Sequence record: MZ892903.1
From: Escherichia phage ELT1
Length of the DNA stretch: 64,000 nucleotides
Strand: one strand, 5' to 3'
The position numbers and the translations under genes were made by a program. Below, piece by piece: positions 28,401-45,384 of the stretch; the stretch's first letter is position 1; the number at the start of each line of letters is the position of its first letter. The notes below the pieces were generated by a model, which saw only the letters and a list, made by a program, of their open reading frames with translations, was not told the origin of the DNA and ran no database searches.

Positions 28401-28763
28401 TTAAAAGAATTTAAACTTTTTCTTTGACCTTTTATTGAATGCATCTTGTAGTTGCATTGTAATACATTTTTCTACATGAGGAGCTAACTCAGCTTTTCTT
28501 TCTTGGTCAAGAACAGCAAAGTCCATTACAACCTTTCCATCAACCCAATCTAATTTTGTCACATACACAATGTGTGTAGAACCATCTTCTAGTTTAATGA
28601 CAATCTCCTGGATAACATTTTCCATGGCAGATTTAATTATCTTAAGAGACTCATTAAAAAGACGTTCTTTTCTTTCTTCTTCCCCCTCCGAAGAGGGGGA
28701 TTCATCGATAATTTCTAGATCTAAGTCTAAATCATCTTTATTCATTAAATTCTTCCATATCAC
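28401..28763 (-). CDS. 40: gp40-like head vertex assembly protein, 120 aa
   Basis: length and position between uvsX and 41. Confidence 0.6.
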   Translation of the reverse strand: MIWKNLMNKDDLDLDLEIIDESPSSEGEEERKERLFNESLKIIKSAMENVIQEIVIKLEDGSTHIVYVTKLDWVDGKVVMDFAVLDQERKAELAPHVEKCITMQLQDAFNKRSKKKFKFF

Positions 28764-29385
28764 TTAACTGCTCGAGGTCAGTTTCTAAATCAGCAGCTGA
28801 TTTACTTTTACTTTCTGGAGATTTAAATTTTTCAACCTTTGAGTTAATCAATTCATCAACTTCAGCTTCAACAATTTCATTACTATCAATAGCACCTAAC
28901 TGATAAGCACGTTTAATAGCATCTCGGAATGGTTGATGCTTAAATAAAGGACCCCAGAATGTAGTGCAGTTGGTATCTTTTGCACGCCAAGATTTTTCTT
29001 CGCGAATCATCTCGCCGGTTTCTTCATCAAGAAATTCACGAGCATACCAGCCATTTTTTGGTTTTACTACAAATCCTAATTCTAGAGCCATATCTAACAA
29101 TCCAGAATAAGGATCGATACCACCGTCAAATTTAACATCAATAAAGAATTTACTTTTTTCTTTAACGGTACGAGATTTTTCTACATTTAGAACAAATTGA
29201 TACCCCTGAAGATCAGAACCATCTTTAATCTGACGCTTACCGATAATGAATACAGTATCAGCCGAATACATTACGCCTGTATTGTGTGTAACGATACCAT
29301 TTTCTAAAACATAATGCTCTACGTCAGCAACAGACAAATCATAGACTTCTTTTTTACCAACAGATTTAACAGATTTAATTTTCAT
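28738..29385 (-). CDS. uvsX: UvsX C-terminal piece: 35-aa C-intein fused to ~180-aa UvsX C-extein
   Basis: MKIKSVKSVGKKEVYDLSVADVEHYVLENGIVTHN then TGVMYSADTVFIIGKRQIKDG... (UvsX C-terminal half); own ATG with AAGG RBS. Confidence 0.85.
   Translation of the reverse strand: MKIKSVKSVGKKEVYDLSVADVEHYVLENGIVTHNTGVMYSADTVFIIGKRQIKDGSDLQGYQFVLNVEKSRTVKEKSKFFIDVKFDGGIDPYSGLLDMALELGFVVKPKNGWYAREFLDEETGEMIREEKSWRAKDTNCTTFWGPLFKHQPFRDAIKRAYQLGAIDSNEIVEAEVDELINSKVEKFKSPESKSKSAADLETDLEQLSDMEEFNE
29281..29385 (-). mobile_element. split intein C-fragment, 35 aa
   Basis: intein blocks F/G VYDLSV...H.Y..NGIVTHN followed by +1 Thr. Confidence 0.8.
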
Positions 29386-29417
29386 ACTTTACCTTGTGTT
29401 TCGTAGTAGCTAGTTTC

Positions 29418-29442
29418 AATATACATATTTCATGAAAGCATA
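29418..29442 (-). promoter_or_regulatory. middle-promoter-like element upstream of UvsX C-piece
   Basis: minus strand ATGCTTTCA (MotA-box-like), 12 nt, then TATATT. Confidence 0.35.
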
Positions 29443-29527
29443 ATCTTGATTGTCGCGTTCATTCCAAATTCTTTTACCATATCTTCGAATGTAGTGCGAA
29501 CCCGTAAAGAACTCGCATTGGAATGCC

Positions 29528-30250
29528 TTAACCACGTGCATCTACTGCATAAGCCCATCCTTTTGTGTTAGCTTTAATTTTGTTGATAATTGTGTTAGGA
29601 TTAATTCCCAGCGCTCTTGCAGCAGGTCTGACGCCCCGGTATTCAATACCGTTTATGATAACGCCTTTTTGTCTAGGATGAGAATGCTTTAATCTTTTCT
29701 TTGCTTTTTCTGATATTTCATTAATTGTTTCTTTGGTGTGTTTCTTACCATAGAACCCATTGTTTTCTCCTGTAATACCTTCTGATATGTGCTTACGGTG
29801 TTCATCAGAAGATTTCACGCCTTTTGTGACGCCAACATACACACCAGATTTAACAAGCGGATGGTTTCTTTCAAGACGAATACATTTACCTGTTATATGA
29901 TGCTTGTATGATGCAAAATCAGCATTAGCATATGAATTATGTCCACAAGCATAATCCAAATTAAAATAATCTGGATTTGTTTTAACGTTTACTTGTTTCT
30001 GATAGAAATTTTCGCGCTCTAGCAGTTTAGCATGTTTAATATCATCATATTGCTCCAGTATTTCAACAGTAACATTATTGATAAAATCATGATATCCGGG
30101 ATATCTCGATGAGCCATAGTACTCGCGACCACGGGCGTCAATAATCTTACCGTCTACATAAGAAGCATTTGTCTTGCTTCCTATGTAGTAATACGGCGGA
30201 GTGCCGTTTTTAATTCTATCGTTGAACACAATTTTATAGACAAAATTCAT
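29528..30250 (-). CDS. free-standing GIY-YIG homing endonuclease (Seg-like), 240 aa
   Basis: N-terminal FVYKIVF...YYYIGSK, NUMOD-like NGFYGKKHT, C-terminal helix-turn-helix-like tail; sits between the two uvsX pieces. Confidence 0.7.
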   Translation of the reverse strand: MNFVYKIVFNDRIKNGTPPYYYIGSKTNASYVDGKIIDARGREYYGSSRYPGYHDFINNVTVEILEQYDDIKHAKLLERENFYQKQVNVKTNPDYFNLDYACGHNSYANADFASYKHHITGKCIRLERNHPLVKSGVYVGVTKGVKSSDEHRKHISEGITGENNGFYGKKHTKETINEISEKAKKRLKHSHPRQKGVIINGIEYRGVRPAARALGINPNTIINKIKANTKGWAYAVDARG

Positions 30251-30253
30251 ATG

Positions 30254-30286
30254 GGTACCTCAAAAATATACATTAGTCCGGTACCC
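30254..30286 (-). promoter_or_regulatory. hairpin sequestering the RBS of the endonuclease gene
   Basis: inverted repeat GGGTACC (30254-30260) / GGTACCC (30280-30286); 3' arm covers GAGG just upstream of ATG 30248-30250. Confidence 0.45.
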
Positions 30287-30293
30287 ATATTTA

Positions 30294-31223
30294 TTACCTT
30301 ACAACACAATCCATTCCAGCTACTAAATCTTTAGCTTCAACCCAAGTTGGAATGTCTTTAACCATTACCAGGAACTTGTGGGTATCTGAAGTAGTTACTT
30401 TATAACCGTCTTCGAATTCAATTTCGAAACATTCAGGAGTACCTTCAGCCAGAGTTTCTGGGTCCCAAACATAAGTTACTTCATTATCACCGACCATGGT
30501 TTTAACACGTTCACCTGGACGAATATCTTCAACTGCTTTAGTAGAACCATCGGACATCTGGATTTTAGTACCAGCAATAACACAACCACCTGTCATCACG
30601 GTTTTACTAAACAGTTCAATTGTTTCAATTGTATGGTTAACCGCAACACACGGAATGTTTTTAATACTAAAATAAGGAGTAACAATACGGAATAATGACT
30701 TCAGTGATTTAGCACGAGTCATATCTGCCACAGATTTTTCATTCAAGGCATCTTCCGTTTCTTTCTTAGAAGCCATATTACCAATTGAGTCAATGAATAC
30801 AATAACTTTTTCACCACGCTCAATAGCTTCAAGCTGATTCACCATATCAATTTTCAGCTGTTCAACTGACTGAATTGGTGTATGAATTACTCGTTCCGGG
30901 TCAACTCCCATGGATCGCAAATAAGCTGGAGTAATACCAAATTCGCTATCATAGAATAGACAAACCGCGTCAGGATATTTGTTCAAATACGCCGCAACCA
31001 TAGTCAAAGACATATTTGATTTAAAGTGTTTAGAAGGACCTGCAAAAATGGTTAAACCAGACTGCATACCACCATCAATCGCACCAGAAATAGCGATATT
31101 AAGCATTGGGATTTTTGTACGGATTACATCCTTTTCATTAAAGAATTTAGATGTAGTCAGTTCAGCAGTCATTTTAGAAGTGGAAGCTTTAATTAAACGG
31201 GATTTTAAATCTGCAATAGACAT
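30294..31223 (-). CDS. uvsX: UvsX N-terminal piece: ~213-aa N-extein fused to 96-aa N-intein
   Basis: MSIADLKSRLIKAS..., Walker A GPSKHFKS, ...KTVMTGG then CVIAGTKIQ...TTSDTHKF...MDCVVR-stop. Confidence 0.85.
   Translation of the reverse strand: MSIADLKSRLIKASTSKMTAELTTSKFFNEKDVIRTKIPMLNIAISGAIDGGMQSGLTIFAGPSKHFKSNMSLTMVAAYLNKYPDAVCLFYDSEFGITPAYLRSMGVDPERVIHTPIQSVEQLKIDMVNQLEAIERGEKVIVFIDSIGNMASKKETEDALNEKSVADMTRAKSLKSLFRIVTPYFSIKNIPCVAVNHTIETIELFSKTVMTGGCVIAGTKIQMSDGSTKAVEDIRPGERVKTMVGDNEVTYVWDPETLAEGTPECFEIEFEDGYKVTTSDTHKFLVMVKDIPTWVEAKDLVAGMDCVVR
30297..30584 (-). mobile_element. split intein N-fragment, 96 aa
   Basis: intein block A CVIAGTKI and block B TTSDTHKFLV; ends at in-frame TAA. 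Confidence 0.8.
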
Positions 31224-31300
31224 TCATTTTTTCCATAGGCATCATTATATTTTCCTCACTGGTTAAAGATAGAGTAATTATAACACAATAAATTTAGGCA

Positions 31301-32143
31301 TTAATCAACTGCTATTGGATGAATAGCATTAAACTTATGAAATGCTTCTGATTTTTCTTTACGCGAAACACACATGCGAAGAACCTTTAGTGGTTCATCT
31401 TCTTCACCCAACGATTTTCGTTTTTCAATATTTGAAGTTTTCCAACGAGCTTGCTCTGGAAACTCTCTATTGATTTGCTCAAGCGCTCTATTATGTTTAG
31501 AATTACTACGAATTGAACTACATCCACCGGGAGCGTGTGATTTTCCAGATACAACTAGATATTTGAACAAGGCCAAATGCGGATAACCTTGATTAATTAA
31601 ATTGAGAAATGCATACATATCTTCGCATAAATCAATTTTTCCATACCCAATTTGTTCTGTCGTAAGTTTTCCGAGGTCATACCATGTATTCGTGAATCCA
31701 TATGAGTTTTCACGATAATTACCCCAAGATGAAGTAATTTTAAAAATTGGTAGACGAGCATGGCCATGATAATACCCACAATCCATGGCATCTTCAACGT
31801 ATTGAATCAATTCATAGAACTGTTCACGAGTTAATTGATTAATTTTATCTACACGCCGTTTATCGTCTCTCTTTCGTATTGAACTCATACGAATAGTAGT
31901 ATCATCATCAATCATCCAGATTCGTTGACCTGCATACATATCAGTAATTGCTTTACGAGTACCGGCAATTCCATTAACATCATCAGGAATAGTTACAATT
32001 TTAGCTCTAGACCCATAAGCATCATAATAAGCTTTTTCTTCGTGTTCACGCACTACAATATGGGGTTCATAATCAGTCGGAAACATATTAAGGGCAGAAA
32101 CTGCCCCTACACGCTGATAACTTGGAATTACGAATTGAATCAT
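31301..32143 (-). CDS. putative glycosyltransferase (GT-A-like, DxD), 280 aa, in the position of T4 b-gt
   Basis: WMIDDD motif; unlike the recalled 351-aa T4 beta-glucosyltransferase. Confidence 0.55.
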   Translation of the reverse strand: MIQFVIPSYQRVGAVSALNMFPTDYEPHIVVREHEEKAYYDAYGSRAKIVTIPDDVNGIAGTRKAITDMYAGQRIWMIDDDTTIRMSSIRKRDDKRRVDKINQLTREQFYELIQYVEDAMDCGYYHGHARLPIFKITSSWGNYRENSYGFTNTWYDLGKLTTEQIGYGKIDLCEDMYAFLNLINQGYPHLALFKYLVVSGKSHAPGGCSSIRSNSKHNRALEQINREFPEQARWKTSNIEKRKSLGEEDEPLKVLRMCVSRKEKSEAFHKFNAIHPIAVD

Positions 32144-32781
32144 TTAAGTGCCTTACATTTGTCAAAATGGTATCTTGTCATATTTGGCCCACGTCCTTTT
32201 AGTCCGCAATGCGGACATATTTTTTCTATCAAATTATGAGGTTTTCCTTTACGATTTTTAGACATCGTTTCTTTAATTATTTTAGCTTTTTCTACGCCAA
32301 AAATTTCTTCATAAGTTTTACCAGAATTTTCCTTGGCTCGATTTATAATTCCATATGCCTGCTCATTTTTACCATACATTGGATTACCTTCGCCTTTCAT
32401 TCTTTTAGAATGATCAGGACGCTTGATTCCACGAAAGGCATTTCCGCACTTATATCTTTCTTCTGGAGATAGTTTTTTACCGTACATTCCATTTAATTTG
32501 CCTGGAAAACTTCCTCCCCATGCTTCATTCTTTAAATTATATGAATCCGGACAATTAGCAGCATCTAAACAAGTTAAAATAATTTCTTCAACCTGTCTAA
32601 ACATTGGTCCTTCATATAATATTTCTTTATTAAAGGATTTTATTCCATATTTCTTTTTAGCATGTTGCCAAACTACACCCGAACCATCATAATTCGGGTT
32701 GTGACCATCATGACTTCCTATATACCACTTTTTAGTTTTAGGATGTTTATACTTATAAACATGTGGCACATTTACTTCCAT
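32140..32781 (-). CDS. GIY-YIG homing endonuclease (Seg-like), 213 aa
   Basis: HVYKYKHPKTKKWYIGS, NUMOD-like NGMYGKK and NPMYGKN, C-terminal CPHCG zinc finger. Confidence 0.65.
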   Translation of the reverse strand: MEVNVPHVYKYKHPKTKKWYIGSHDGHNPNYDGSGVVWQHAKKKYGIKSFNKEILYEGPMFRQVEEIILTCLDAANCPDSYNLKNEAWGGSFPGKLNGMYGKKLSPEERYKCGNAFRGIKRPDHSKRMKGEGNPMYGKNEQAYGIINRAKENSGKTYEEIFGVEKAKIIKETMSKNRKGKPHNLIEKICPHCGLKGRGPNMTRYHFDKCKALK

Positions 32782-33512
32782 TTTCCAGTATAATCCTTTT
32801 TAGCAATATGAGTCTCACCGGTGTTCCACCAATGGTCAACTAAATAAAACTGATTTTCGTACACATGAAGACTTCCAACGTTCCATATAATAGAACCTGC
32901 TTTATATTGCCGCGATGGGTCGCCTGCATTCAAATCAGATACTAATTTATCTAGTACGTATTTTTGCCAAGCATAATCATTACGATAGCCTGCCCAGCAA
33001 TCATTGCTTCTCATGCTAACAACCGCATTGACTTTCTTATCACGAATCAGGTACTGTACTGTATTAGTACACATGAAATCTGACATACCATCTTTATTGT
33101 AGTCAAATTGCATGGATGGACGAGTATAAATCATGATACCACGTCGAGAATCAGGATTTTGACCAAGTTCAGCTAAACACATATCATACTGGGCATAGTT
33201 ATCTTCTGACCAGATAGCCCAACCATAATTCGAGTTAATTTCACCTTTAGAAGATGCTACCTGCTGCCAAATCTTCGGTGTTTCACCTGGAATATCTTTA
33301 ACAAACAGACTTTGAGACTTATACCATTCAAGTTCACGCTGAATGTATTCATCATTAAGAGCGCCAAAAATAAACGGTTCATCTGCTACAAATGATGCGC
33401 CAATAATTTCAATAGTTTTAACGCCAGTTTTATCAACTACGAAATCTTTTTCCTTTAATGCAAGCCCCAAATGAAGACGGATTTCTTCAACTGTCATAGA
33501 GTCACTAATCAT
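32772..33512 (-). CDS. 42: dCMP hydroxymethylase, 246 aa
   Basis: matches recalled T4 gp42. Confidence 0.95.
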   Translation of the reverse strand: MISDSMTVEEIRLHLGLALKEKDFVVDKTGVKTIEIIGASFVADEPFIFGALNDEYIQRELEWYKSQSLFVKDIPGETPKIWQQVASSKGEINSNYGWAIWSEDNYAQYDMCLAELGQNPDSRRGIMIYTRPSMQFDYNKDGMSDFMCTNTVQYLIRDKKVNAVVSMRSNDCWAGYRNDYAWQKYVLDKLVSDLNAGDPSRQYKAGSIIWNVGSLHVYENQFYLVDHWWNTGETHIAKKDYTGKWK

Positions 33513-33519
33513 TTAAACC

Positions 33520-33669
33520 TCAATTGATACATTCATATTTAACTTGTAACAGTAATAAACCCCAACCTAAAATAATAGTTGGAATCATAAGAGGAACCGT
33601 TACACTATAGTATATACTTATTATAACCATCAAGATTAAAAGCAATGCTGTTATAATTTTGCTTTTCAT
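33520..33669 (-). CDS. small hydrophobic protein, 49 aa
   Basis: own translation MKSKIITALLLILMVIISIYYSV...; ATG overlaps imm stop. Confidence 0.35.
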   Translation of the reverse strand: MKSKIITALLLILMVIISIYYSVTVPLMIPTIILGWGLLLLQVKYECIN

Positions 33670-33917
33670 TCCTTCTCTCTGATGATAATTACCTGATTTG
33701 GCTGCGCAGACTTTTTAGTTTCACCCGCAATTGACCAAATAAATGTAATAAACCAACCAATAATTGACCAGTTAAACAGTAAAGATGTGAAAAAGATTCC
33801 TACTGTCGATTTTGACCCACGCATCAAGGCGATAAACCACGGAAGCATGTATATAATAATAGCCAACACGCCTGAAACTAAAACCATAAAAATTGAACCT
33901 GCTACTAAAGTTTCCAT
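33666..33917 (-). CDS. imm: Imm superinfection immunity membrane protein, 83 aa
   Basis: matches recalled T4 Imm. Confidence 0.8.
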   Translation of the reverse strand: METLVAGSIFMVLVSGVLAIIIYMLPWFIALMRGSKSTVGIFFTSLLFNWSIIGWFITFIWSIAGETKKSAQPNQVIIIREKE

Positions 33918-44164: not shown

Positions 44165-44185
44165 TAAAGGGCCGAAGCCCTTTAT
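44165..44185 (-). terminator. terminator-like hairpin 3' of a-gt
   Basis: AAAGGGCCGAAGCCCTTTATTTT. Confidence 0.5.
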
Positions 44186-45384
44186 TTTGTAATAATGTCA
44201 AACTGTTCTTTAAAGCAGAAGCTTGAATCTTGATGCTGATACAAAAATTCATAAGCTTTTTCACGTTCGCGGTCATAAAGAGTTCGGTCAGATGACAGTT
44301 CTTTAATACGTTCAAATGTTGATTCCATGTCATTTTCATCAAACCAAATGATACCGCTATCATGCGAGGTCAAAGGAGTATTATCAACACGGAATTTTAA
44401 ATTATCACCCGTTGATTTCCAAAATACCGGAATTGTACCGCAAGCACCTAATTCAAGATGAGTATATTCGAGTGAGCGTTGTAAGTATTTCTGGTTAAGT
44501 TTACTCAACTGATATCCAAAGCCAGATTTACTCATTCGTTCAAGCATTTCACTATTAATATAACAATCTAGGATTTGTGCCGGTTGATTCGGCGTGAGAT
44601 TCATTTTATCAATCTCACGATTACCATAATATTCATACGGAATACCTTTTTCCTTAATTGCAATAAAAGCAGGGGAACGTTCAAGACCTTCCATTACAGT
44701 GGATTTACCAGCAGGTTTTAAGAATTTTTCGTGAAAATCAAACATCTGATAAAAACCTTTCCATGTAGTCGTACGACCAATCCAACGGTTGATGTTCATG
44801 TTAATTTCAGAAACATCTTTCCAATAAGTTGACCGAACCTTCGCAATATCCATAGGAGGCTGAAAATTATATACTGTTGGTGCTTCTTCAATATCATCAA
44901 ACAGAGAAACAGTTTCTGGATACCATTCTTTCATCAGAACTTTATTAAAATCACCATTATCAGAATGGCTAAAAATAACATCAGCTCGACGAACAGTTTC
45001 TTCTAATCCCAAATTTCGACGCAAAGAAAGCACAGAATGATCATGCTGATAAACTACAACACGAATAGAAGGTTTAATATTATCTAAAAGTTTTTTATAG
45101 TTATTAATCGTAGCTTCTTGAACGGAAGTAGCAGGAACAGAATTAATAATTAGAATATCACAATCATTTACCAGCTTAAGTGCTTTATCGTATTCTTTAG
45201 CTAAAATAACTGGAATTGAAAATGATTTGTGGTCATGAGAACTTGTACGAGTAAATGATTTATCTTTAGCATAAACCAAAGTTACTTCATGACCATTTTT
45301 AATAAACCAATCACGCTGCTCAAGAGAAAATTTAGTTACACCGCAACCTTCAAGGCCCCGAGCCAGAAAAATGCATACTTTCAT
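44182..45384 (-). CDS. a-gt: DNA alpha-glucosyltransferase, 400 aa
   Basis: matches recalled T4 alpha-glucosyltransferase in sequence and length. Confidence 0.9.
   Translation of the reverse strand: MKVCIFLARGLEGCGVTKFSLEQRDWFIKNGHEVTLVYAKDKSFTRTSSHDHKSFSIPVILAKEYDKALKLVNDCDILIINSVPATSVQEATINNYKKLLDNIKPSIRVVVYQHDHSVLSLRRNLGLEETVRRADVIFSHSDNGDFNKVLMKEWYPETVSLFDDIEEAPTVYNFQPPMDIAKVRSTYWKDVSEINMNINRWIGRTTTWKGFYQMFDFHEKFLKPAGKSTVMEGLERSPAFIAIKEKGIPYEYYGNREIDKMNLTPNQPAQILDCYINSEMLERMSKSGFGYQLSKLNQKYLQRSLEYTHLELGACGTIPVFWKSTGDNLKFRVDNTPLTSHDSGIIWFDENDMESTFERIKELSSDRTLYDREREKAYEFLYQHQDSSFCFKEQFDIITK

Follow-up and report, generated by a model that had tools for sequence, protein, structure and literature searches.

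The window, by which we mean the whole stretch of 64,000 nucleotides of Escherichia phage ELT1 that was analysed (GC content 34.6%), carries the genes and mobile elements listed in Table 1. The listing of its open reading frames revealed a frame of 280 amino acids that runs from ATG to stop, hereafter ba-gt and its product ba-GT. According to our own arithmetic, a random frame would stay open over 280 codons with a probability of ~1e-9 at this GC content, so that chance does not account for the ORF. The motif WMIDDD occupies residues 76-81 of the protein (W76-M-I-D79-D80-D81). Coordinates, length and motif had all been given correctly in the first-pass annotation, which left the strand (minus) unstated. 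The ATG of ba-gt overlaps the stop of the upstream ORF (ATGA), and in the raw sequence an AAGG lies 7 bases upstream of the ATG. A promoter and terminator scan of positions 31150..33700 returned 13 sigma-70-like sites against 11.3 ± 3.7 in shuffles, i.e., no excess, and is therefore uninformative on ba-gt transcription. The gene had been placed between uvsX and gene 42, and both do flank it, with uvsX downstream. However, uvsX is split in two ORFs and an endonuclease ORF of 213 amino acids intervenes before gene 42.

Table 1. Features of the ELT1 window discussed in the text.
Feature	Position	Strand	Basis or remarks
uvsX, two ORFs parted by a split intein and an endonuclease gene	28738..31223	-	Alignment with T4 UvsX
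35-aa C-intein ending His-Asn, then Thr and the remaining UvsX	28738..29385	-	
Free-standing NUMOD3 homing-endonuclease ORF, 240 aa	29528..30250	-	
UvsX N-terminal part and 96-aa N-intein beginning with Cys	30294..31223	-	
ba-gt, beta-glucosyl-HMC-alpha-glucosyltransferase (TAGT family, GT-A fold), 280 aa	31301..32143	-	DxD D79-D81, candidate catalytic base E174-D175, conserved G206-G207, R212
Free-standing homing-endonuclease ORF, 213 aa	32140..32781	-	PHROG 314 'homing endonuclease', E 2e-31
Gene 42, dCMP hydroxymethylase, supplies hydroxymethyl-dCMP (first pathway step)	32772..33512	-	Thymidylate-synthase-family Pfam match; position of gene 42 in T4/T2/T6; so annotated in relatives
a-gt, DNA alpha-glucosyltransferase, makes the alpha-glucosyl-HMC acceptor of ba-GT	44182..45384	-	393/400 identical to T4 alpha-GT; PF11440, E 4e-258

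At its start, the 213-aa endonuclease ORF overlaps gene 42 by 10 nt, and at its stop it overlaps ba-gt in an AAATGA. It is absent from phages T2, T6, EL (vB_Eco_EL) and Solly, where the start of ba-gt overlaps the stop of gene 42 itself (AAATGA), and its insertion recreates this native gene 42/ba-gt junction. The insert was found in 77 phage records, in 70 of them at an identity of at least 99%, which suggests from the sequence comparison that the endonuclease ORF has spread recently. On the other side of ba-gt, a global alignment with T4 UvsX placed a clean insertion after Gly-Gly and before the T4 residues TGPMYSADT (GGG in T4, TGG in the window). The same fractured uvsX was detected in 8 of the 478 records that match ba-gt, corresponding to six phages, namely HY03, pSe_SNUABM_01, SYGD1, SP21535, BYEP01, and RPN226. 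The UvsX N-extein differs from T4 at many positions and the C-extein at one residue only, a contrast pointing to recombination, or else co-conversion, in the surroundings of the mobile element. No description of a split intein in coliphage uvsX was found in the literature searched. Neither the endonuclease insert nor the fractured uvsX changes the identification of ba-GT.

The corresponding slot of T4, which likewise lies between uvsX and gene 42, is taken up by segA and b-gt (351 aa). The first-pass annotation had proposed that an unrelated ORF replaces b-gt in ELT1, and this was confirmed. BLASTP of the ELT1 protein against T4 b-gt found no similarity (best E 4.1), and T4 b-gt matches PF09198 (E 9e-98) and a GT-B-type family, while the ELT1 protein matches only PF20691. 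In addition, a tblastn search of the whole 64-kb window with T4 b-gt as query returned nothing better than E 1.3. Kinship between ELT1 ba-GT and T4 beta-GT was rejected on the combined grounds of missing BLASTP similarity, different Pfam families and different folds (GT-A versus GT-B). The T4-like character that had been ascribed to a-gt is equally sound, as tblastn of the T4 gene aligned 44185..45384 at 98% identity.

The expectation that such an arrangement would be unusual was not borne out. Whereas ~476 phage records carry ba-gt, just 29 have a T4-type b-gt; these comprise T4 stocks, RB55/RB59 and a handful of recently isolated phages, and no close relative of ELT1 is among them. Alpha- and beta-GT have been reported together in 6/753 genomes (PMC13216743). 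The ratio of records makes ba-gt the norm of the genus, that is, the majority state in Tequatrovirus, and T4 the exception. In records KM607002 (RB55), KM607003 (RB59), and PP434423, a b-gt that is 100% or 97% identical to that of T4 is labelled 'beta-glucosyl-HMC-alpha-glucosyl-transferase', which appears to be a mis-annotation conflating two unrelated enzymes.

A Pfam scan of the 280-aa protein identified PF20691, 'TET-associated glycosyltransferase' (TAGT), as its sole family, with a score of 40 bits, above the gathering threshold of 27.5, and residues 3-207 aligned to profile positions 2-205 of 205. Among the PHROGs, the protein matched PHROG 842 (phrog_842), 'beta-glucosyl-HMC-alpha-glucosyltransferase', over residues 1-275 with an E of 5.9e-88, and no NCBIfam model matched it. 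The first-pass annotation had called for such a profile search, and both families thereby recovered are transferase families. T2 (AP018813) and T6 (AP018814) carry ORFs of 280 and 279 amino acids, respectively, between uvsX and gene 42, and ELT1 ba-GT is identical to these at 270/280 and 268/280 residues (96%), at the same locus. An even closer match is TRBEL_047 of vB_Eco_EL, with 279/280 identical residues and N19D as the sole difference.

At the nucleotide level, megablast of ba-gt against 50,697 phage records hit 478, of which 476 contained at least 80% of the gene. The carriers are nearly all Tequatrovirus from Escherichia, Shigella, Yersinia and Salmonella hosts, with 90-99% identity. 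The 20 kb around ba-gt are 97.9% identical to Escherichia phage HY03, with the same gene order. In protein space, a word-indexed search yielded 11 matches, and an exhaustive search of representatives was needed for a useful alignment; phmmer run in this way over 1.84 billion representatives returned 369 relatives. We are thus very confident that the 280-aa ORF is the T2/T6-type beta-glucosyl-HMC-alpha-glucosyltransferase. The gene is well known from T2/T6-like coliphages, ordinary and very common in its phage genus, and its assignment amounts to annotating it correctly, not to discovering anything new. Winkler and Ruger reportedly cloned and sequenced both the T2 and the T6 gene in 1993.

The AF2 model of the protein has a GT-A fold, with a single Rossmann-like alpha/beta/alpha domain that can be superposed on solved GT-A enzymes. 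Residues D79-D80-D81 directly follow the strand 74-78 of the model, where the fourth strand ends. Conservation was assessed in an alignment of 81 full-length family members reaching down to ~20% identity. R11, D80, D175, and G207 are invariant in this alignment, I6, P7, R63, D79, D81, G186, G206, R212, and P229 are conserved in at least 90% of the sequences, and ELT1 ba-GT retains every one of them. The first-pass description of a GT-A-like, DxD-type transferase therefore agrees both with the model and with the conservation of DDD across the family. The T6 enzyme, modelled with AF3, was likewise assigned to GT-A, as a sister to GT2 (PMC13216743). Sequence searches of the PDB, with the single sequence and with the 81-sequence profile, returned no solved relative but chance matches only (E > 0.001), so that residue roles are assigned by fold analogy only. 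By this analogy, DDD (79-81) should bind the divalent metal together with the diphosphate of UDP, and E174-D175, where a helix begins, is likely to be the catalytic base, comparable to the 'ED' of inverting GT2 enzymes. Hence, ba-GT would be a metal-dependent inverting GT-A enzyme.

Both enzymes that make the acceptor of ba-GT are encoded in the window, i.e., the dCMP hydroxymethylase (gene 42) and the DNA alpha-glucosyltransferase. In the pathway that we propose, gene 42 would provide hydroxymethyl-dCMP, which would be incorporated into the phage DNA. Subsequently, alpha-GT would use UDP-glucose to attach an alpha-linked glucose to the hydroxymethyl group. Finally, ba-GT, again with UDP-glucose as donor, would join a second glucose to the 6-OH of the alpha-glucose with inversion, and the resulting beta-1,6 linkage would give gentiobiosyl-HMC. 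It has been described that the PF20691 enzyme of T2/T6 glucosylates cytosine that is already alpha-glucosylated, leading to 5-gentiobiosyl-methylcytosine (PMC13216743). Furthermore, Tequatrovirus isolates with alpha-GT and TAGT and without beta-GT contained 5hmdC, alpha-glucosyl-mdC and alpha-gentiobiosyl-mdC and no beta-glucosyl form (HPLC/MS, PMC13390438). In EL, the three were present at a ratio of about 1:2:2, again with no beta-glucosyl form, and the authors assigned the second glucose to the TAGT, which is syntenic with T4 beta-GT (HPLC/MS, PMC13390438).

We consider this three-step sequence from gene 42 through alpha-GT to ba-GT almost certain, and ELT1 DNA should accordingly carry 5hmC, alpha-glucosyl-5hmC and alpha-gentiobiosyl-5hmC and no beta-glucosyl-5hmC. 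The suggestion in the first-pass annotation of a gentiobiosyl-type transferase as in T2/T6 was well founded, given the identity to both of these enzymes, the PHROG 842 match, and the near identity to the enzyme of EL, for which gentiobiosyl-5hmC was measured. Its wording of a 'second-sugar' modification different from that of T4 calls for a correction, as T4 has no second sugar; what the beta-GT of T4 makes is another kind of monoglucosylation.

The extent of diglucosylation is known to vary, and gentiobiosyl-HMC accounts for ~5% of cytosines in T2 and 72% in T6 (PMC13390438). We compared ba-GT across eight Durham phages whose DNA chemistry is known (EL, BGP, Geo, Solly, CP, EH2, TB37, and Some). 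The comparison revealed two allele classes that differ at positions 50, 89, 95, 97, 101, 202, and 203. The EL-type allele (V50, I89, K95, R97, I101, S202, H203) is found in ELT1, HY03, EL, BGP, and Geo, and the T6/Solly-type allele (I50, M89, R95, C97, V101, A202, Q203) in Solly, CP, EH2, TB37, Some, T2, and T6. EL, BGP, and Geo share the ratio of about 1:2:2 of 5hmC, alpha-glucosyl and gentiobiosyl forms, that is, partial conversion with ~40% gentiobiosylation, while Solly, CP, EH2, TB37, and Some contain roughly one-third 5hmC, two-thirds gentiobiosyl and a trace of the alpha-glucosyl form, corresponding to near-complete conversion (HPLC/MS, PMC13390438). Allele class and HPLC/MS modification group thus co-segregated in 8/8 phages, which should be taken as a lead and not as evidence of cause, since EL, Geo, and BGP are closely related.

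With respect to the T2 enzyme (AP018813, L001:5283-6125), position 11 is a His, while all 81 aligned family members have Arg. R11H and P251S are its only differences from the Solly allele, and R11H may be regarded, judging from this comparison, as a candidate cause of the classic low gentiobiosylation of T2. That natural ba-GT alleles set the extent of conversion from the mono- to the diglucosylated form, this reading of T2 R11H included, appears rather doubtful to us. If true, ELT1 DNA would be predicted to show intermediate, mixed glucosylation owing to the enzyme itself. The two public genome records of T6 are each damaged in ba-gt. In AP018814 (L002:5135-5974), ba-GT is without one Asp of DDD (WMI-DD), and in MH550421 (L006:138-980), a stop interrupts ba-gt at codon 10 and the annotation begins at Met20, with loss of the invariant R11. 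Laboratory stocks of T6 may therefore differ in gentiobiosylation.

It could be argued that ELT1 ba-GT is a TAGT of another specificity, using another donor, forming another linkage or acting directly on 5hmC, in which case the modification would not be gentiobiosyl-HMC. PF20691 is a diverse family that is found with alpha-GT, with beta-GT or alone and whose specificity varies (PMC13216743), and the ELT1 allele departs from that of T2/T6/Solly at the seven shared positions. However, these differences are conservative or fall outside the invariant motifs, and against the T2/T6 enzymes all conserved residues are equal within the 96% identity. Moreover, a single residue separates ELT1 ba-GT from the enzyme of EL, whose DNA contains gentiobiosyl-5hmC. 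It is on account of this 279/280 identity that we rejected a divergent specificity, which we regard as extremely improbable.

A further reading accepts the enzyme and supposes that ba-gt is silent or weak in ELT1, leaving its DNA essentially alpha-monoglucosylated, in the manner of T2. The T2 gene is indeed almost identical, yet gentiobiosyl-HMC in that phage reaches just ~5%. The ba-gt lesions in laboratory T6 records suggest that the gene is dispensable in culture, and the endonuclease insertion, which has displaced ba-gt from gene 42, could alter the level of its expression. In ELT1, however, the ORF is intact and has kept all family-invariant residues, including R11, which is H in T2. The ATGA coupling junction and the AAGG ribosome-binding motif are likewise kept, and the arrangement of endonuclease and ba-gt persists in all 77 phage records with the insert. 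Since phages with the same enzyme allele also display ~40% gentiobiosylation, we find a silent or weak gene unlikely, and we retain an active ba-GT that forms gentiobiosyl-HMC as the preferred interpretation.

The modification serves to shield the phage genome against host nucleases directed at 5hmC or at monoglucosylated DNA. Which of the host's defences a T-even phage evades, and which it sets off, depends on the sugar type carried by its hydroxymethylcytosine. The defences concerned include McrBC, restriction of the GmrSD/BrxU type, the Brig1 glycosylase and CRISPR-Cas. The possession of alpha-GT with ba-GT, rather than alpha-GT with beta-GT, hence predicts the restriction phenotype of the phage, as well as the behaviour of its DNA with restriction enzymes and in sequencing. 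ELT1 represents the standard T2/T6 state, which has been documented genetically (1993) and chemically (1962, and by LC-MS in 2026 on a phage with a 279/280-identical enzyme).

Among known systems, the ba-GT of T2/T6 ('ggt') resembles that of ELT1 in its length of 280 amino acids, its 96% identity, the uvsX-gene 42 locus, the partner alpha-GT and the DDD/ED/GG motifs. It differs in that the ELT1 protein departs from it at 10-12 residues and that in ELT1 an endonuclease ORF parts the gene from gene 42. The TAGT of vB_Eco_EL, from the Durham collection, belongs to the same genus and the same alpha-GT and TAGT set and matches at 279/280 residues, but the uvsX of EL is intact and no endonuclease ORF lies between its gene 42 and the transferase. 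The GT2-type inverting GT-A enzymes (e.g., SpsA, TarP and the catalytic domain of cellulose synthase) are far more distant, with just 7-15% identity to ba-GT. In contrast to them, ba-GT has as its acceptor a sugar on duplex DNA, and it bears an extra beta-hairpin (82-98) as well as an extension at the C-terminus (~208-280) that lies beyond the Pfam core. Finally, T4 beta-GT (GT-B, CAZy GT63, PF09198) occupies the same genomic slot as ba-gt. Both enzymes use UDP-glucose as donor in the glucosylation of 5hmC DNA, and both are inverting and form a beta linkage. However, T4 beta-GT acts on the free hydroxymethyl of 5hmC, whereas ba-GT acts on the glucose already placed by alpha-GT.
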